Source: a virus. From it: a stretch of 64,000 bases of DNA. The position numbers and the translations under genes were made by a program. Location: IMG/VR virus record IMGVR_UViG_3300001199_000004; one strand, 5' to 3'. The notes beneath the pieces are model-generated. The model was not told the DNA's origin and did not search any database. It saw only the letters and a program-made list of their open reading frames with translations. How positions within the stretch are numbered: position 1 is the stretch's first letter; every line of letters begins with the position of its first letter. This document shows, in pieces, positions 7,300 to 57,985 of the stretch.

Positions 7300-7373
7300 A
7301 GACTCAAAGAAATAATCGCTAAGGGTGTTTTCTTTTTGATATGAAGTATCCCTTAACTGCAGCTTTTAAGTCT
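7300..7373 (-). ncRNA. Y-RNA-like structured RNA, copy 2 (downstream of Ro60)
   Basis: GCAGTTAAGGGATACTTCA...AAAACACCCTTAGCGATTATTTCT is a diverged copy of the element at 9314-9384. Inner stem TAAGGG/CCCTTA; outer stem AGACTTAAA/TTTGAGTCT. Confidence 0.62.
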
Positions 7374-9294
7374 GTGTATTTGGATTCGGATTTCCATCCG
7401 AAATTTTATCATCACTCTTGGCATATCGCTTACGCAAAATGGCAATGGTTGGAACTTCTGCAGGTGTTGCCGAAGCTTGTGATTCACTGTTAGCATCTTC
7501 AAAATCTTTGACAAGGCCAAAGATTTGTTCAGACCAACCACTTAACGTTTGAGTTTGCTTTTGTTTTGGCTTAACTTGTGCCTTACCATAACCTTGCAAA
7601 TCAACCGAGTGAACCCAAAGCTTGGAATTAACCTTTCTACGATATGTTTCCAACATACTTTCGATGGTAGCCTTGTCGCCACCCTTTCCAAAGTGTGCAT
7701 TCATATCATGTCCACAGTTATTTGCTCCACCAATGGTATAGCAACAGAAGTCAGAACAGATAATAATACGGTCAACCACAACTTTTCTTTCGGTCAAGTC
7801 GTGAATGCCACACCACAAACCAGTTTCCGTACCTCCACCAACACCACTACCCTTTTTGTAATGTGCAGTAATAGCCAATGCGTTGTGCTTAGATCGTTCG
7901 TCCTCTTTAGCAACCTTATCAATTTGCTTCTTAATAGCCATACAGCTATCCGATGCACTGAAAGGAACCCAAATTAACGAATCTCCAAACACACCAATCA
8001 TAGCCTTACGGCCCATTCTCTTAGCAATCACTGCTGCAAGGGTATTTCCGGTATCCGAAACACGCATGTTGGACTTACCGCTGATTGCAGCCCCTTGAGC
8101 AGAACCAGAGTTATCAACGAAGATAACAGTCGTTCCACTCAATTCTGGCACATTCATACAAGCATTGTCCAACATTTTGTCGTTAATGCTTTGTGAATTA
8201 GTGCTAGAAACTTCCTTGCTAGCAGTGAAGAAACGGAAAGGAAGTTGCTTTGTGTCTTTGATAGAAGTACACTTTTCGTATACCTTATCCCACGCAGCAT
8301 CACTAATTTTCGCTTCTTCAAAATTTCTCAAGTTTCTTGTAAGAGCCATTTCATTCATTTGTGGAATGATAAGCTCCCAAGAATCTTTAGTTCCGCCAAA
8401 TTGGGAAATAACGTTTTCCCAAGTTAGACCAGCCTTTTCAAGCATTTCATCATTGACTTCTTTAAGATTCTTCAAAGAGAAAAATTTCTTTCTCAATTTG
8501 AGCATATCTGGAGAATCATCATTGACAGTACCATTTACGAAATATTCGTAAACAGACTTGCTCAAAGGCCAACCTTTATCGGCATTGTTCTTAGTGTATT
8601 TCTTGACGCTATTCTTAGTGAAAGCACCACGAATCATCAACAAAACATCTTTGAAGTTTGGTCGTGCAGCACTATCGTACTTCAACAACCCATACAAAGA
8701 TTGGTTTGCAAATGCAATCGAAAGAAACTTTCTCAAGCTAGCTGGCAACGTACCCTTATTCATACCATCCTTCTTTTCACAGAAAAGATGACGGAAAGCA
8801 GCGAAAACACTAATGATTTCATCTGCTCTTTGAACAATGGAAGTTGCGTATTTTGGCAAATACTTCTTCGTCGAATCATTAGCTGCGGCGATGCAGGCCA
8901 TGATTTGCGGAGTATAACGTAATTTTAGACCAGTCTTGGTATCACGAGCCCAAGAAGCAATGACGAGCAAATCTTCTGGGTTAGAAGACTTTGTAACAGC
9001 TTGTGCCGTCTCAATTACTTCTCTAGCTTGTGCCGAAAGACCAATTTCATCCGTAATTACAGAAGAAATCTTGCCAGTCGTAGCCAATTCCTTGAAAAAT
9101 GCACCATAGCTACGATTTTCATCGTAATACTTTGGCTCATTAAAGAATCCACCACCAATCATAGCAATAAGCTTATCGACAGCATTATCAAATTCAAATG
9201 CACGACCTGGAACATGTGGATGTTCAACAGTTTCTGCATGAATCTTTTCGTGAATCTTACCCTTTGGCTTCGTAACCCCTAATTTTTTAGACAT
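7366..9294 (-). CDS. Ro60/TROVE-vWA ribonucleoprotein (Rsr-like)
   Basis: LTWENVISQ, MALTRNLRN, KQLPFRFFTA, vWA MIDAS FVDNSGS. Start placed at 9294 (MSKKLG) behind SD AAGGAGG rather than at 9399. Confidence 0.92.
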   Translation of the reverse strand: MSKKLGVTKPKGKIHEKIHAETVEHPHVPGRAFEFDNAVDKLIAMIGGGFFNEPKYYDENRSYGAFFKELATTGKISSVITDEIGLSAQAREVIETAQAVTKSSNPEDLLVIASWARDTKTGLKLRYTPQIMACIAAANDSTKKYLPKYATSIVQRADEIISVFAAFRHLFCEKKDGMNKGTLPASLRKFLSIAFANQSLYGLLKYDSAARPNFKDVLLMIRGAFTKNSVKKYTKNNADKGWPLSKSVYEYFVNGTVNDDSPDMLKLRKKFFSLKNLKEVNDEMLEKAGLTWENVISQFGGTKDSWELIIPQMNEMALTRNLRNFEEAKISDAAWDKVYEKCTSIKDTKQLPFRFFTASKEVSSTNSQSINDKMLDNACMNVPELSGTTVIFVDNSGSAQGAAISGKSNMRVSDTGNTLAAVIAKRMGRKAMIGVFGDSLIWVPFSASDSCMAIKKQIDKVAKEDERSKHNALAITAHYKKGSGVGGGTETGLWCGIHDLTERKVVVDRIIICSDFCCYTIGGANNCGHDMNAHFGKGGDKATIESMLETYRRKVNSKLWVHSVDLQGYGKAQVKPKQKQTQTLSGWSEQIFGLVKDFEDANSESQASATPAEVPTIAILRKRYAKSDDKISDGNPNPNTQT

Positions 9295-9313
9295 TTTTAT
9301 GCCCTCCTTAAAT

Positions 9314-9384
9314 GATATCACCGAGAAATAAACGATAAGAGAGTTTTTTTCATTAACAGTGAAGTATCTCTTACCTGCAACATC
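9314..9384 (-). ncRNA. Y-RNA-like structured RNA, copy 1 (5' leader of Ro60)
   Basis: Outer stem GATGTT/GATATC, inner stem TAAGAG/CTCTTA, apical hairpin TTCA-CTGTTAA-TGAA. Lies between the promoter and the SD. Confidence 0.65.
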
Positions 9385-9397
9385 AGTGACAAGATTC

Positions 9398-9425
9398 ATT
9401 ATAGTCAGGTTCGCATCTATTTCAA
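9398..9425 (-). promoter_or_regulatory. Sigma70-type promoter for the Y-like RNA/Ro60 unit
   Basis: TTGAAA-N16-TATAAT on the minus strand. Confidence 0.55.
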
Positions 9426-17156: not shown

Positions 17157-18392
17157 TTAAGCAACCATGTCTTGGGCAAGATGCGTTTCAATAAACTTTT
17201 TGTCAACCTCATAGGAACCAACCTTTTCTGAGGCTTCGTACATTAAATCAAGCATAAAACTTTCTACAACACTTCGCAACCCTCTAGCTCCCACTTTCTT
17301 GTCAAAAGAAACTGAGGCAATATATTCCACAGCTTCATCCGTAAATGATAACGTAGAACCATCCATTTTGAACAACTTTTGATATTGCTTCAACAAAGCA
17401 TCTTTAGGCTCTGTCAAAACCTGAACCAATGCTTTTTTATCCAACTCTTTCAATGAAGTAATTGCTGGCAATCTACCAACTAATTCAGGGATTAGACCAA
17501 ATTCAACCAAGTCCTCACTGGTAAGCTTGGCCATCAAATCTTGATTCTTGGCTTCTTTGGAGCCAAAACCCATATACTTACCTTGACCCATTCGTTTTTC
17601 AATAATTTTATCCAACCCAACAAATGTCCCGCCACAGATGAATAGAATGTTTGTAGTGTCAATTTCAATGCATTGTTGCTCTGGATGCTTTCTACCACCT
17701 TGGGGCGGCACATTGCACTTAGTACCCTCTATAAGCTTCAATAGAGATTGTTGGACCCCTTCACCAGAAACGTCCCGTGTAATAGAAACGTTTTGACTTG
17801 TTTTACCAATTTTATCAATTTCATCAATATAAATAATCCCTCTTTCTGCAGAAGGAATATTCATATCGGTATTTCTAAGTAATTTTAAAACTAGATTTTC
17901 AACATCTTCTCCAACATATCCAGCTTCTGTCAGGGTTGTCGCGTCCCCAATAGCAAATGGAACATGCAACAGTTTGGCTAAAGTTTGTGCCAGTAAGGTT
18001 TTACCGCTACCAGTTGGACCAACCAAAAGAATGTTGGATTTTGAAATTTTAACATCTGAAAGATTACCCAAATCCATAGGTTTGCGTTCAGAAATAATCC
18101 GTTTGTAGTGATTGTAAACCGCTACGGACAATCTCTTTTTAGCATGCTCTTGACCGATAATATATTCGTCAAGATGCTTCACAATCTCTTTGGGAGAAGG
18201 GATCTTCGTTGATTTTTTTGGAGATTTGGGATCATCTTGTGGTGATTCTGTCATTGTAGTACGACAAATCTCAATACAAGACGCACAAATACTAGAAGGG
18301 ATTCTTCTAGGTTTAAGAATTGGCCCTTTTACAAGTGGTCCAACCTTACTAGATGGTTCACCACAAAAACTACAAACTGTCTTTTCTTCCAT
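17157..18392 (-). CDS. clpX: ATP-dependent Clp protease ATP-binding subunit ClpX
   Basis: CSFCG zinc-binding domain, [51 protein letters not shown]. Confidence 0.97.
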
Positions 18393-39503: not shown

Positions 39504-39541
39504 TATTTAGTAGATGAAAATGGAATTTCATCTACTAAATA
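39504..39541. repeat. 16-bp perfect inverted repeat between the RF stop and the endonuclease start
   Basis: TATTTAGTAGATGAAA-atggaa-TTTCATCTACTAAATA. Confidence 0.9.
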
Positions 39542-39546
39542 AAAAA

Positions 39547-40298
39547 TTATCTCAACAAGTCAAACTGACCTTTCATTACTTTCTTGATTTGGTTGGTAGT
39601 GATGTTTGTCCTATGGTCTATTACTTCACTTCTGATGAAATTATAGGTTCTAACTTTGCCACCACGACCACAGTCGCCAAGTTGGTCTTTTCTTTTTGAA
39701 TTATATTCTGAATTTTGTTTATTCAGATAATATTCATTTACTCTTTGAGTGACGATTTCCAATGCTTTTCGTTTGCTATTGCCTTGATCTCTTTCATCAA
39801 CTACTGCTTGGATACCAGTAGTTCGTTCAACCACACGGCAGCAACTATCGACTTTATTTTTATTAGATCCTCCAGGGCCTGTACCCCTCATAAACGTAAT
39901 GATCAAATCTTTTGGATTTAATTCAATAAGCTTATTTTGTTGTTTAACTGGTAGAACAGCAACAGAAACTACGGAAGTGTGATACTTCCCTAGAGACGTT
40001 CGCTGAACGATATGCTTTCCTACCTCATTTTGGAAAGCCTGAAGAACTTTGTTGCCACTCATTTTGGCAGCAATTCTTCCAGCATCAGATTCTAAAACTT
40101 GACATTTTAGATTTAAAGAAGAAGCATATTTTTGGTAAGCAGCAAATAAATCATGCACGAATAATTTACTATCATCGCCGCCTTCACCAAATTTAACTTC
40201 TAAAAGAAGCTCTTTTGTATCAGAGCTAAAGACAGTGAGTCAATCCTTGTGTGATATTGGGTTCATGGCTAAAGCAACCTCCGATTAAACTTACTCAT
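39547..40298 (-). CDS. Class-I peptide-chain release factor homologue (RF1-like, no domain 1), predicted to be made by two +1 frameshifts (about 249 aa)
   Basis: LLEVKFGEGGDDSKLF, EVGKHIVQR..GKYHTS, GPGGS, RTYNF...DHR. The RF frame is closed by TGA at 40240-40242. SD AGGAG plus ATG at 40298 lie in another frame. Confidence 0.85.
40225..40231 (-). promoter_or_regulatory. Second +1 frameshift site, CTT-TAG-C
   Basis: CTT TAG is in frame with the +1 product of site 1, and a +1 shift here enters the RF frame. Confidence 0.65.
40268..40283 (-). promoter_or_regulatory. First +1 frameshift cassette, GGAGG-TTG-CTT-TAG-C
   Basis: Same layout as prfB (internal SD, 3-nt spacer, CTT, stop, C) but with UAG. 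Confidence 0.8.
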
Positions 40299-41482
40299 AA
40301 CATTCTCCTAAATTAAAAATCAAACGGCTCATCAATACTACGATACTTTTTAACATTAGCACCATCTATAGATATAGGATAGTATACACATTTTGTTTTA
40401 CAAAGTAAACCCAAATTTACTAATTGTTCTGTAGAATAATACTTATATCTTGCCTTTGAATGCATTTCCAAATAAGTATTCTCACTAATATAATCAAGCA
40501 TTATTTGCTCACGGTTTCTACCACAGAAAGTTTATCCTGATTTGGGTAATAACACAGGATATAAACTCTTCAAAAGAGCTTTCTCAAACCATGTTCCTTC
40601 TTCCATAGATTTTTGCTCTTTTGGAGTAAGAGGAACTTTTTTGGGAATTTCTTTGTTTGAACAATGATAGCACCAAACGTTCATTACCAAATAGACCTTA
40701 AATTACTAAAAAGGATATTAACCGAAGGGGCGTCGGAAGGAGATTTTTGATTCCCAAGGATTTCTAACTTTGCTTTCTTTTTCCAAAAATGTCCAAAAAC
40801 TGAAAGAATTTGATACATTTTGCCTTCAGGCATTTTATCAGGTTCAAATACAACGTAATGATAGGAAGGTAAATTTCCCCAACCATAAACAAATTTACGA
40901 GTTTCCGATGTATACAACTTGCCTTCATCTGCATACATGATTTCAGTACGTTGAATTGGACCTGGATCGAATTTCAACAAATTCATCGCAGCTACAGCAT
41001 TAGCCAAATCTTTACAAGCAACGTAATAAACCATCGTGTCTTCCATTATTCACCCCACGGTTCATCAATGTCTCTATACTTAGAAGACTTTTTCTTTTCA
41101 GTTTCTAAAGGCACTGGGTTTGCAATAACTGGTTTTGGCTTTGGTTTGGGACTTTTGCCGCCATCTTTGGAATAGCCCGTCATAGCATCTGTCGCCATTT
41201 TACTATACATACAAATTCCTTATTTAGCAGACTTTATCCAAATGGTACTGTTGCCAGTTTGTTGCTGTTCTAGTCCAGCTTCAATAGCTTGTTGAAATGT
41301 AGTTAGATTATAATAGGTTAAACAACAAGCAACACAAATTGCAACCGCAGCAACACAAGTTACAATAACACAAATCATTTTTTGTTCTCCATTCATGCTT
41401 TTGTCTTCTTTAAAAGATGGAATGCCTTGTGTAATGTTTTGCCTCGGCTTTTTCCCAACAATACTATTATCAAGTTCGCCCA

Positions 41483-41965
41483 TTACAAACCTTCAATTCT
41501 AGTTCTAGTTATATTCTCAATCTTCCCAATGAATTCATCAGTGCAAGATTGAATTGTTTTTTCTTGTTTTTTTAGTTCGTCCTCAGCCAAACCTTGACGA
41601 ACTTTCTTGCGAATATTTCTAATAGAAACCTTCGATTCTTCTTCAAATTTCTTGATTTGCTTAACAACCTTGGCTTTTTCTTCCAAGCAAATAGGTGCAG
41701 CACTTACCACAACCATATGCTTGCCACTGCTGTAAGCAGAGAACCCAGAACGTTTAATGGCCTCTACCACCTTACCAGAAACTTGGTTATCGGACAAGAG
41801 AATACTAATGCCATTCTTGATGGGATTAGAGAACCCAAGAGTACCAATTGGTGTCATATTTCCATAATATTCCACCTTAATCATGTCAATTAAGGCTGGA
41901 CTGACCGTAGTAGAGTGAATCTTACTAATCTGATCTTCAAACAATATAAAACTTTTTTGCATCAA
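41483..41965 (-). CDS. frr: Ribosome recycling factor
   Basis: SPALIDMIKVEYYG..TPI, EESKVSIRNIR, IQSCTDEFI. Confidence 0.85.
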   Translation of the reverse strand: MMQKSFILFEDQISKIHSTTVSPALIDMIKVEYYGNMTPIGTLGFSNPIKNGISILLSDNQVSGKVVEAIKRSGFSAYSSGKHMVVVSAAPICLEEKAKVVKQIKKFEEESKVSIRNIRKKVRQGLAEDELKKQEKTIQSCTDEFIGKIENITRTRIEGL

Positions 41966-44905: not shown

Positions 44906-45826
44906 TCATAATTTTCCTGCTGCTGCAGCAGCTTTAAGTTTGTTGTCAAGATCTATCAAATAATCCCGTCCATATGTTTTATTTTCCAAACCAGAATAAA
45001 GGTTTTCTGGTAAGTCATTGACAAATTCTTTACAATTCGATGCGATAGACAAAGCAATGCAAGCTACCGTATCTGTGTCTCCACTATAAGAAACACTTTC
45101 TTTAAGAATACCAGATAATGTTTTATTGTTGAATATAGCGGTTCTTGCCGCTCGAACACAGGGAATAGCTAGAGCATCCACTTTAGAACCGTCCCAAGGC
45201 TCCAAAATTGGCGTTGTAATCAATCCAACATCATTATATTGCTTATGTCCCAAACTTAATTCGGAAAGCCATTCGTCTACGTTTTTTAATGGCCCACAGT
45301 CATAAATAAAATAATGAGACATTAAAGCTACAACTAAAGAAGATTCTACTCCTTCAACAGAATCATGGGTTACAGAAGCTTGAACATATGCCATTTCAAT
45401 TACTTCTTTCAATATTTTAATATACCCAATAGGAGCAGCACGCATAGCAGCCCCTGACCTGTTGCTTTTACCACCTATTTTAGAAAGCAATTCTTTCCCA
45501 TTTTCTGAATTTAAGAGTAAATTCAGAAAAGCGGTTGTGTACCCTCTTCTTTGGTCCCGCTTGAAACATTCAACGAATTTATTGGCGAATGATAATTTAC
45601 TCCTGATGTTTAATAATTTGCTTCCGGGGCCGCTTAGTAATGTTTCGGCAACCCCAATCATCATTTGGGTATCATCAGTGTAGTTGCCAGGAGGGATTAG
45701 TCCTGGTTGGTATTCTTTATATTCTAAGAAATTTGGTTTATCTAAATGTGGGGCAATTTCTTCTTGTTCAAGTCCCCATTCAAATAATCCACCAAATGCG
45801 TCTCCTATCGCGGCCTCTACTAACAT
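44906..45826 (-). CDS. ADP-ribosylglycohydrolase (DraG/ARH family)
   Basis: AIGDAFG, YTDDTQM, SGAAMRAAP, VTH, GDTDTVA. Confidence 0.93.
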   Translation of the reverse strand: MLVEAAIGDAFGGLFEWGLEQEEIAPHLDKPNFLEYKEYQPGLIPPGNYTDDTQMMIGVAETLLSGPGSKLLNIRSKLSFANKFVECFKRDQRRGYTTAFLNLLLNSENGKELLSKIGGKSNRSGAAMRAAPIGYIKILKEVIEMAYVQASVTHDSVEGVESSLVVALMSHYFIYDCGPLKNVDEWLSELSLGHKQYNDVGLITTPILEPWDGSKVDALAIPCVRAARTAIFNNKTLSGILKESVSYSGDTDTVACIALSIASNCKEFVNDLPENLYSGLENKTYGRDYLIDLDNKLKAAAAAGKL

Positions 45827-50604: not shown

Positions 50605-52002
50605 TCAATGAAACTCCGTTCCACCCTTGCGAGCTAAATAATCAGCAGAAACAGACTTTACAATTCTCCTACCATTCAAAACACGGCAATAAGGAACTTC
50701 TACCGTTGGAGTACATACAATTCCTTCCCGACCACTAAACTTACCTGCAGCCTTAACATCACACATAGTCGTTGGGCCAGAGGTATGTAATTCCAAAATT
50801 TCCTTACTAAATGGTCCTCGATACAAAATCGGAACCATTTCAACGCCAAATTTTTCAAACAAATCCTTCTTCACATCATAAGACAAATACTTGTTGTTTA
50901 CAGCGATGTCAAATGCTCTAAAAGATTTCCCAGAAAACCCGTATGCCATATCTTGAATTCCCAAGCCTACAAGCTCCCCGAATACAATAACGCTATATTT
51001 AGGTTCTTCTGGTTCATATTCATTACGAATATAAATCAATAGTTCCTTAACATTATCAGTAAGTGGAAGCCAAAATTCAGAACGAACCAAAACAGGCTCA
51101 AAACAGTTTTCATTGTCTTTAACTTCAAAACACTGACACTTATCAACTACAGATTCATCATATCTTACAATCACACCCTCTTCAACTACAGGAGTTTTAA
51201 TGGGTTGTTCAAAAACATAATCAACTTGCCAAATTCGACCATTTTCATTGAAAATTGTCCCTGCAATTGGCGGTTCAGACAAAATACCATTTGCAATCAA
51301 CTCTTCAATACGATATCGAGTTTCAACCTTAGACCATTCTTTACGACGCACATCATGAGATCCAGCAGTGAAAACCCAATCTTTTTGGCCGTCTTCAAGA
51401 TCGTCAAGAATAAGACCAACTCTAGTGTTCTTACCATGAAGTTTTTCGGTATAAACAACTTCCGTTCCATCCTCAATGGCATTTGGATAATTAGCAAAGT
51501 TTTCAAGTTCCGTATAACGATGGAAAAACGTACTTGGTTTTTCTGCTTGCCCATCATTAGTAGGAGGCGGCGGATCATATTTGGTTACACCAAAATGTTC
51601 TGCAACATCTTGTCCGACTTCCCAATTGGGGTCATCGCCCCAAGTTGGGTCAATCTTCATAATCACACCATAGGAAACTTGTCCTCTTAAACGACAAGCA
51701 ACCACTCTTCCACCCTCGGGACGAATACCAAATTCATCCTTAGGAAGATGATGCAAATACTTCAAATTTCCCAATCTACCCTTGGGAGTATCATTAGGAC
51801 CATTACACAAAGCCAACGGCAAAATAGCATCAGGAGGAAAAAAGATGCATTTTTCGCCTTCTTGAAACTGAGCTACTTTGGAAATTGGGTCAAAAGTGAT
51901 ACAAACTTGCCAACCCTTAATGTGGGCTACGGCAAGCTTATCCGCATTTTCATGAGGTTCTACTTTGTCAACAGTACAAACTTCTACGATTAATTTGCTC
52001 AT
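50605..52002 (-). CDS. RNA ligase, DRB0094/Rnl5 family, with an internal insertion
   Basis: HENADKL, LRGQVSYG, YTEKLHG, FGEL.G.GIQ, FDI, REGIV, KSVSADYL. Confidence 0.9.
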   Translation of the reverse strand: MSKLIVEVCTVDKVEPHENADKLAVAHIKGWQVCITFDPISKVAQFQEGEKCIFFPPDAILPLALCNGPNDTPKGRLGNLKYLHHLPKDEFGIRPEGGRVVACRLRGQVSYGVIMKIDPTWGDDPNWEVGQDVAEHFGVTKYDPPPPTNDGQAEKPSTFFHRYTELENFANYPNAIEDGTEVVYTEKLHGKNTRVGLILDDLEDGQKDWVFTAGSHDVRRKEWSKVETRYRIEELIANGILSEPPIAGTIFNENGRIWQVDYVFEQPIKTPVVEEGVIVRYDESVVDKCQCFEVKDNENCFEPVLVRSEFWLPLTDNVKELLIYIRNEYEPEEPKYSVIVFGELVGLGIQDMAYGFSGKSFRAFDIAVNNKYLSYDVKKDLFEKFGVEMVPILYRGPFSKEILELHTSGPTTMCDVKAAGKFSGREGIVCTPTVEVPYCRVLNGRRIVKSVSADYLARKGGTEFH

Positions 52003-56791: not shown

Positions 56792-57985
56792 GTGTATATG
56801 AAGCACATACGAACCATTAAAATTCAACTTAAAGTTAACCCAAATGCATTCAAACCAACAATTGAAGCATATACTAATGCTTTTAATTATGTTTGCAAAA
56901 CAGGCTGGGACAACCAAGAATTTAACGGAGTTAAATTACATCATACTACATATCATCAGGCAAAACAAGACACAAATCTTAAATCCCAATTAGTGATTTC
57001 AGCTAGAACCAGGGCCACAGAAGCTCTTCTTTCAGTAAATGCTAGAAAAAAGAAAGGCAAAAAAGTTTCATGTCCTCGAAGTAAATGCTGTTCAATCAGA
57101 TATGATGACCGTACTTTATCCATTAATTTTACGAATAGAACTATCAGTATATTAACCATAATGGGTCGAATAAAAAATTTACCATTTTTTGTACCAAAAC
57201 ATTTTGAGCAATATCTTAGCTGGAAACGTTGTTCTGGGGATTTGTTTCAAGTTAAAGGCAAAACTTATTTGCATATTGTTTTTTCTAAAGAAGTAAATGA
57301 TATTGTCGATAATGGTAAATATGTCGGCATTGACAGAGGGATCAAAAAGATTGCAGTAGTAAGTGATAAAAGGTTTTTTGGTGGTGGAAGAATTAAACAT
57401 GTGAGTGAACGATATGAACGTTTACGTGGTTCTTTACAAAGTAAAGGAACACGTAGTTCTAAAAGACACTTGAGAAAAATTTCTCATAGCGAACGGTTAT
57501 TTAGAAAAAATGTAAATCATTGTATTACGAAAAAAATTGTTTCTAGTTTAGAACCAGGAACAACAATTGTGTTAGAAAAATTGACTGGCATTCGTGGTGG
57601 AGCAAGGAAATTAACTGCAGAACAAAAGGCCGCAGGACAAAAAACTTTGCGTAAACAACAACGAAAAGAAGTTAATAAATGGAATTTTTTTCAATTTGAA
57701 CAATTTTTGACATATAAAGCAGCAGGACATGGCTGTAATGTTGTTTATGTGGACGCACGTTATACGTCTCAAAGATGTAGCAAGTGTGGACATATTGCTA
57801 AAAACAATCGTCAAAACCAAAGTCAATTTAAGTGTAAAAAATGTTCATTTCAATTAAATGCAGACTTAAATGGAAGTCGTAATATCGTACTCAAATATTT
57901 GGACGCTACAGGCTATCCAGATAAGGTAAATGTCAATTTACCTAACGACAGTTGCAAAACTGTTAATGTTCCTTTAAGTAATTAA
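56792..57985 (+). mobile_element. tnpB: TnpB RNA-guided endonuclease (IS200/IS605 type), solo, no tnpA
   Basis: RuvC-I GIDRG, RuvC-II IVLEKL, zinc finger CSKCG..CKKC, RuvC-III NADLNGSRNI; all catalytic residues intact. Confidence 0.93.

Follow-up and report, generated by a model that had tools for sequence, protein, structure and literature searches.

A phage gene for a short RF1-type release factor, probably expressed through two prfB-type +1 frameshifts in series

How is a release factor made from a reading frame that is closed by a stop codon on its 5' side and whose only later start codon lies inside a conserved domain? This question is raised by a gene on the minus strand of the IMG/VR virus record IMGVR_UViG_3300001199_000004, of which one stretch of 64,000 nucleotides (the window) was analysed here. 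The obvious precedent is the bacterial gene prfB, which encodes release factor 2 (RF2): a Shine-Dalgarno (SD) element, a spacer of three nucleotides (nt) and the sequence CUU UGA C there bring about a +1 frameshift by which the gene is autoregulated, the textbook case of a gene that senses its own product by recoding, and this type of frameshift is regarded as specific to RF2 and UGA. An earlier reading of the window (the original prediction) held that the phage gene carries this cassette with UAG in place of UGA, and carries it twice, the two sites acting in series as an AND-type sensor of RF1 activity. We conclude, from sequence comparison, that the window gene is probably expressed via two programmed +1 frameshifts in series, each of the prfB type; that the double design exists in the family to which the gene belongs seems to us more secure than its use in this particular member.

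Every element of the proposed cassette is found where it had been placed (Table 1). After its ATG at 40298 the leader reads AGT AAG TTT AAT CGG AGG TTG and then CTT TAG C, and if one base is skipped at this point, frame B reads SHEPNITQGLTHC and runs into a second, identical CTT TAG C after 14 codons by our count, the two stops lying 43 nt apart (3n+1). One more skipped base at the second site opens the release-factor (RF) frame from AGC 40227, beginning SSDTKELLLEVKFGEGGDD..., and that frame is indeed shut on its 5' side by TGA 40242-40. Between this TGA and GTG 40158 there is no ATG, GTG or TTG, and the GTG itself sits within a conserved block, 'KLFVHDLF', the counterpart of 'ALFAGDLF' in the alignment with E. 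coli RF1, as the claim of a start lying inside a conserved segment implies. As in prfB, then, a slippery CUU stands directly before an in-frame stop, here at both sites, and the +1 frame encodes the body of the protein without a start of its own; a C follows the stop at both sites (40268 and 40225), which provides a weak termination context. The string GGRGG-N3-CTTTRR occurs once in the 64 kb of the window, against 0.11 occurrences expected.

From this anatomy we infer the following course of events. Ribosomes would initiate at ATG 40298 behind a strong ribosome-binding site (RBS), read nine codons, and pause once UAG occupies the A site and peptidyl-tRNA-Leu sits on CUU, while GGAGG, 3 nt upstream, pairs with the 3' end of 16S rRNA. 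Slow termination at UAG-C would then allow the tRNA to re-pair on UUU, so that frame B is read, and 14 codons further on the same event at UGU-CUU-UAG-C would carry the ribosome into the RF frame, for a predicted product of ~249 residues (9 + 14 + 226). Because both stops are UAG, which is read only by RF1-type class-I factors, output would approximate the product of the two shift probabilities, low at ample RF1 and steeply higher at RF1 shortage.

Homologous loci bear on this proposal most directly. We gathered 80 loci from IMG/VR and 80 from metagenomes, together with the contigs encoding the seven closest proteins, and classed 121 distinct upstream regions by script, with site 2 defined as a CTT-stop 25-45 nt before the GxGG motif. 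One CTT-stop site with an ATG in frame B is the commonest arrangement (51 of the 121), followed by two CTT-stop sites (32), a direct ATG start (27) and other layouts (11), so that the CTT-stop cassette is kept in 83. A three-frame scan for CTT-stop hexamers 20-80 nt upstream of site 2, in which an element was called SD-like at -7 kcal/mol or below, placed all 32 upstream hexamers at 3n+1 from site 2 and none in the other frames, over spacings of 28-70 nt; 30 of them have an SD-like element at the 3-nt spacing, and no SD-linked CTT-stop hexamer was found in the 600 nt downstream. The base after the stop is C in 24 of 32 cases at site 1 and in 54 of 83 at site 2. The comparison of both heptamers and of their spacing, by which the original prediction had proposed to be judged, is thus strongly positive.

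The same frame rule disposes of a bypass of the T4 gene 60 type, with take-off at the first CUU, landing at the second CUU/UUU 43 nt on, and the spacer skipped. Matching take-off and landing codons, and a stop after the take-off codon, are what such a bypass calls for; its gap should be free of any frame rule, yet 32 of 32 gaps are 3n+1, while landing on CUU would meet UAG again and a take-off hairpin is unsupported. We therefore rejected this explanation on the 3n+1 rule and regard it as barely credible.

Further support for two shifts comes from those doubles in which other routes are closed. In about ten of them, including L001, L013, L015, L028, L091, L092 and L124, neither the frame-B stretch from one site to the other nor the open RF frame contains an ATG, a GTG or a TTG, and therefore two shifts would be the only route to the protein. 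Leader peptides are alike across the doubles (MSKK..NRRxL), because the RR/RG codons are the SD element itself, and the window leader is of the same type as those of its relatives (MSKxNRRxL). The nearest GenBank phage, LR756511 (595 kb, 45% identity), has the same double layout with other stops: an RBS and ATG, the leader MKKKVKNQVCL, AGGTG-TGT-CTT-TAA-C, 15 codons, CGT-CTT-TGA-C and then the RF frame, the sites being 46 nt apart. A more distant phage, LR756504, has a direct start (MEKIILEIR).

In the protein tree, the genes with a frameshift site group as a single 95-row clade, within which single and double states have been swapped many times, at least seven changes being forced by well-supported branches. 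Homologues with an uninterrupted frame, which the original prediction had named as evidence that would count against it, do exist (the 27 direct starts), and most of them belong to a separate clade. Doubling likely arose through tandem duplication of the cassette, since the two cassettes are near-copies of each other in several lineages, for example in L134, where the first residues of the frame-B peptide (SNE/NNATE) resemble those of the RF that follow site 2. Some loci have GTT where CTT would be expected before the stop: GTT TGA is seen in L018 and L147, and GGGGG-TTG-GTT-TAG-C forms site 1 of L136.

Within the window's own clade the conservation is closer still. This clade comprises eight distinct sequences (the window, L171, L083, L172, L173, L175, L087 and L089), whose proteins are ~60-80% identical to that of the window. 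All eight have an RBS-ATG, GG(A/G)GG, 3 nt and CTT-TAG, followed by the 13-nt block CTGTCTTTAGCTC, which contains site 2 and is unchanged throughout; both stops are TAG in every member, the stop-to-stop distance is 40, 43 or 46 nt, and all indels between the sites are multiples of 3. The SD element, both heptamers and the 13-nt block are invariant even though the synonymous divergence (dS) from the window is 0.9-2.5. Because these blocks have stayed the same while synonymous sites are near saturation, the pattern argues for selection on the nucleotides themselves. Between the sites, differences within the clade number 42/31/30 at codon positions 1/2/3, a distribution that does not single out the translated frame.

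What, then, does the RF frame encode? Its product contains the PCRF (PF03462, 4e-15) and RF-1 (PF00472, 3e-19) domains and is closer to RF1 than to RF2 (E 1.6e-38 against RF1 in the PDB versus 5e-23 against RF2). It aligns only to residues 106-340 of E. coli RF1, that is, to domains 2-4 without domain 1, and given the stronger RF1 match and the unaligned N-terminal part, it is therefore an RF1-type factor without domain 1. This domain is missing throughout the phage family, of which the consensus reads VQRxPPTExKGRxQTS in the recognition region and GPGGQ in the catalytic one. The window copy departs from both: four residues (PATE) are deleted, leaving VQRT....SLGKYHTS and no PxT, and GPGGSN replaces GPGGQ, with GGS for GGQ. 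Elsewhere in the family, 62 of 81 proteins examined have a full-length 10-residue recognition loop, mostly with PPT, and GGQ is present in 59 of 62 proteins in which the motif was located. GGQ is retained in the closest relatives (~60-80% identical), as is PPT except in L089/P0009; among them, the combination of the PxT-loop deletion with GGS is peculiar to the window copy, which could be a codon-independent or a non-hydrolysing factor. The family is almost confined to phage or metagenome contigs. Cellular homologues amount to six matches in 185,579 species genomes, all of them single-site contigs of metagenome-assembled genomes; five of these were placed in the planctomycetes (Pirellulaceae or Mariniblastus), the sixth in the archaeon Nitrosotalea.

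The loss of both motifs invites the thought that the cassette is a relic, the window copy decaying or barely expressed and its sites no longer regulatory. That the two lesions are found in this copy alone among its close relatives would fit such a history, as would its longer terminal branch (0.18 versus 0.01-0.05). Against this stands a 226-codon frame that is intact in a genome of 35% guanine plus cytosine (GC), with ratios of nonsynonymous to synonymous divergence (dN/dS) of only 0.09-0.20 relative to all seven relatives compared; neither cassette is damaged, nor is the leader RBS or the ATG. Ratios this low show that purifying selection acts on the RF frame, which is no pseudogene, and we consider a relic quite improbable.

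Several other features weigh against two serial shifts, and these deserve to be set out together. Site 2 has no SD-like element at the 3-nt spacing (predicted duplex +0.7 kcal/mol, versus -10.4 at site 1), a caveat that the original prediction had itself raised; the efficiency of this site may be low, and two shifts in series may yield very little protein. Across the family, such an element is missing from site 2 in about half of the doubles and in many singles. Secondly, all eight clade members keep an RF-frame ATG that follows the first UAG at a distance of 2 nt, has GGAGG/GGGGG 11 nt upstream and is itself followed by the UGA; the TTG of frame B is likewise conserved in all eight. Finally, the feedback logic of prfB is not simply transferable to a product without PxT and GGQ.

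The ATG in question (40266-64) was missed by the original prediction, whose statement that no other route could substitute for the two shifts was accordingly too strong, even if its observation that no start intervenes between the TGA and GTG 40158 holds. Translation could begin at this ATG, through GGAGG or by re-initiation after the first UAG, and continue by near-cognate readthrough of UGA 40242-40 (UGA-C); the RF would then be made in one frame under the control of RF2 activity, with the CTT-TAG-C heptamers as relics or plain coding sequence. Indeed, the indels of the clade never throw the ATG and the TTGA out of register, and a 3n+1 spacing would be expected from this route too for clade members, the ATG being at a constant distance from the first TAG. 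Five loci (L024, L095, L096, L126 and L005) that look standard-code consist of a leader, an in-frame TGA and the RF only, and one gene caller has read the nearest relative, L171 (P0003, 77% identical to the window protein), across the stop with TGA=W.

Readthrough leaves unexplained, at dS ~1, why site 1 should be invariant, with its CTT-TAG, its SD at exactly 3 nt and its leader ATG behind an ideal RBS, and it gives no reason for the 13-nt block at site 2. Nor does it account for 13 doubles of the family that have no RF-frame ATG between the sites and still keep 3n+1. An ATG at stop+5 is seen again in roughly half of the doubles, and its presence here looks like a legacy of cassette duplication, as frame B starts SNE/NNATE; the sole SD available to ATG 40266 sits 11 nt away and belongs to site 1, a spacing that is poor for initiation in E. 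coli. We take readthrough from this ATG to be a real rival or a parallel route, albeit an unlikely one. In the five loci just named, ~30-60 nt before GxGG, a short leader that has an RBS of its own shares the RF frame and is parted from the RF by a single TGA; they have no shift site and look like forms of this gene gated by readthrough, most clearly in L024, L095, L096 and L126.

The conserved TTG (40243-41), the single such codon in a frame-B spacer that has neither ATG nor GTG, and one that overlaps the upstream TGA as TTGA, suggests another possibility, namely a start in frame B (leader MTHCL) and a single +1 shift at site 2, the site 1 leader being a separate small open reading frame (ORF). 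A frame-B TTG stands 15-24 nt before site 2 in all eight clade members, and a single site is the commonest layout of the family. The one SD-like stretch present, AAGGA/AAGGG, adjoins the TTG with zero spacer, however, and L087 and L175 lack it, while the conservation of the site 1 cassette and its 3n+1 position are left without a reason. A start at the TTG is accordingly very improbable, and two +1 shifts in series remain our preferred reading.

If both sites do shift, what is it that they sense? In the window's clade the idea of UAG sensing fits in so far as TAG/TAG is fixed in all eight members; it does not extend to the family. The 32 doubles have, at site 1/site 2, TAG/TAG (15), TAG/TGA (7), TAA/TAG (5), TGA/TGA (3) or TAA/TGA (2), and the 51 singles have TGA (40), TAG (10) or TAA (1), so that TGA makes up 52 of 83 site-2 stops. 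Because the doubles mix TAG, TAA and TGA, the family-wide rule would seem to be that no factor is produced unless the ribosome fails to terminate at the stop, or both stops, of the leader, and not UAG sensing as such. Stop identity has no clear relation to local GC content; its relation to the recognition loop is loose, non-PxT factors occurring mostly with TGA in a comparison uncorrected for phylogeny and PxT-type factors with both TAG and TGA gates. Strict self-regulation in the manner of prfB, where the stop is one that the encoded factor itself reads, cannot on this distribution be general unless the short factors also read UGA. For the window copy, with its UAG stops, self-regulation is doubtful because the PxT loop is gone and GGS replaces GGQ; in the relatives that retain PxT and GGQ it is plausible, and those with TAG or TAA sites could be autoregulated.

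An AND-type sensor of RF1 is thus a reasonable suggestion for the window clade, complicated by the loss of PxT and GGQ and by the conserved readthrough route. More tentatively, one may imagine a common phage logic in which zero, one or two stop gates, by +1 frameshift or by readthrough, precede a private RF paralogue, and the identity of the stop picks the host factor that is sensed; output of the window gene would go roughly as the square of the RF1 shortage, and its product might be no terminator but a rescue factor indifferent to the codon, or might compete with RF1. We hold this wider picture to be possible but rather doubtful. Were the product to compete with RF1, the circuit would be a positive-feedback switch and not a homeostat. 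Doubling would give a multiplicative, switch-like response, and the family suggests that large phages monitor and adjust the termination capacity of their hosts.

The sequence on which these arguments depend appears sound. An assembly indel, which would have undone the prediction, was rejected: the Logan assembly of the source run is identical to the window locus, with zero differences or indels at a depth of ~8, and homologues keep both sites. As the Logan assembly comes from the same sample, it excludes assembler error and not a sample artefact. The sole public run that contains the window DNA is a groundwater metagenome, and no RNA runs containing the locus were found. An alternative genetic code was likewise rejected, stop-to-stop ORFs being barely longer with TGA or TAG as sense; the 89 predicted genes of the window end in TAA (56), TGA (25) and TAG (8), which points to the standard code, and with TAG as sense in frame A, reading would meet a TGA two codons on. 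No tRNA genes were found within the window. Many direct-start homologues, L002, L026, L043, L060 and L158 among them, show TGA in frame where 'GWK' has its conserved Trp, ~35-40 codons after GxGG, and their flanking ORFs lengthen with TGA as sense; these probably come from TGA-recoded phages that carry RF1. In L056, one of the distant loci L050-L082, the RF frame breaks ~40 codons after a direct ATG (..ALRRSF, stop); the remaining homology must lie in another frame, which may be reached by an internal frameshift of a different kind.

A stimulatory RNA structure was also sought: the 140-nt region folds no better than shuffled sequences (z -0.21), and its consensus fold contains no compensatory pairs. 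The short hairpin that begins within the second UAG (Table 1) is invariant in seven of eight clade members, without covariation. It may have to do with a ribosomal pause at site 2, or its pairing may be no more than a by-product of the codons for SS..KEL. Downstream, the 14-nt perfect inverted repeat between the RF stop and the RBS of the next gene is probably a terminator or a processing hairpin.

PHROG matches are consistent with a large phage, the contig being ~167-171 kb. A gene for ribosome recycling factor lies 1.2 kb upstream of the RF gene on the same strand, and the same synteny is found in L083, L084 and L086. Taken together, the auxiliary genes listed in Table 1 suggest that this part of a large phage genome serves RNA repair and the maintenance of translation.

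Table 1. Coordinates of the leader, shift sites, reading frames and neighbouring features in the window
Feature	Position	Strand	Remarks
SD element AGGAG	40305..40309	-	Sequence; 6 nt 5' of leader ATG 40298-96
Leader ORF, frame A	40269..40298	-	MSKFNRRLL; ATG 40298, stop TAG 40271-69
Internal SD-like element GGAGG	40278..40282	-	3 nt (TTG) before first CTT; predicted anti-SD duplex -10.4 kcal/mol
Candidate shift site 1, CTT TAG C	40268..40274	-	CTT 40274-72, TAG 40271-69, C 40268; P-site CUU, A-site UAG
Frame B spacer	40229..40270	-	14 codons (SHEPNITQGLTHCL), from AGC 40270
Candidate shift site 2, TGT CTT TAG C	40225..40234	-	CTT 40231-29, TAG 40228-26, C 40225
RF frame, frame C	39547..40227	-	226 codons, AGC 40227 to TAA 39549-47
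RF-frame mini-ORF	40240..40266	-	MNPISHKD; ATG 40266-64, TGA 40242-40
GTG start chosen by ORF callers	40156..40158	-	Truncated product of 203 amino acids (P0002); inside conserved domain 2
Hairpin AGCUCU-N8-AGAGCU	40208..40227	-	6 bp, from A of second UAG, then U-rich UCUUUUAG; flagged as terminator-like by terminator scan
Inverted repeat	39506..39539	-	TTTAGTAGATGAAA ... TTTCATCTACTAAA
Ribosome recycling factor gene	41483..41965	-	PF01765, 1.4e-24
TROVE/Ro60-like RNA-binding protein gene	7366..9399		
RNA ligase gene	50605..52002		
ClpX-like AAA ATPase gene	17157..18392		
ADP-ribosylglycohydrolase gene	44906..45826		
Transposase gene	56792..57985		

The original prediction knew of no doubled or RF1-type version of the prfB frameshift, and we found no paper that describes a doubled or an RF1/UAG one. 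According to a 2025 survey of prfB, TAG is absent from 8,164 motifs and nothing points to a prfA frameshift (PMC12421855), and the portion of a 2016 recoding review available to us does not mention frameshifting of RF1 or prfA (PMC5009743). Phage RF1/RF2 genes are mentioned, with no frameshift, in a paper on huge phages (PMC7162821) and in a preprint on stop recoding in phages (10.1101/2021.08.26.457843). Nor did we find a literature description of the single-site CTT-stop frameshift in phage RF1-type genes without domain 1. What appears to be new, judging from the loci compared here, is a prfB-type cassette on phage RF1-type genes, with all three stops and repeatedly doubled. The gene calls for this family, P0002-P0010, are wrong, being truncated at an internal Met or Val (MFVHDLF, MFAAY, MEIQFGEGG) or, for P0003, extended by one caller with TGA=W, and public annotations of the family are systematically truncated or mis-coded in these two ways. 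The family also offers a natural test bed for shifting at CUU-stop sites without an SD, and compact parts for synthetic RF1/RF2 sensors.

Set beside bacterial prfB, the window gene has the same P-site CUU, A-site stop, C after the stop, short leader and release-factor product, an SD-like element at exactly 3 nt (at site 1), and an E-site codon ending in U, as does the UAU of E. coli. Unlike prfB, it has two serial sites with UAG stops, the second without an SD; its factor is RF1-type, phage-encoded and without domain 1; and its sites lie in a non-homologous leader and not at codon 26 of domain 1. With the single-site phage genes for domain-1-less RF1-type factors it shares a homologous protein and the TGT-CTT-stop-N element 25-45 nt before GxGG, and it differs from them in that they start at a frame-B ATG and need one shift (TGA in 40 of 51), whereas the window gene would need two, both at TAG.

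Among release-factor paralogues the closest parallel in architecture is PrfH (RF-H), likewise a short class-I factor without domain 1, and one that, like the window copy, is without the stop-recognition tripeptide. PrfH is paired with RtcB and keeps GGQ, and we know of no frameshift in it; the window protein, in contrast, is RF1-type within a phage family that has PxT and GGQ, and is set apart from PrfH by description.

Genes that need more than one frameshift for a single polypeptide are themselves not without precedent, as in the betaretroviral gag-pro-pol genes (two -1 shifts) and in some Euplotes genes (several +1 shifts). A double frameshift has also been predicted for the reverse transcriptase of the Quimbyvirus diversity-generating retroelement (PMC8008677). 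In these cases the shifts set fusion ratios or are constitutive, whereas the window gene would employ a pair of stop-competition sites, 43 nt apart, to gate a termination factor.

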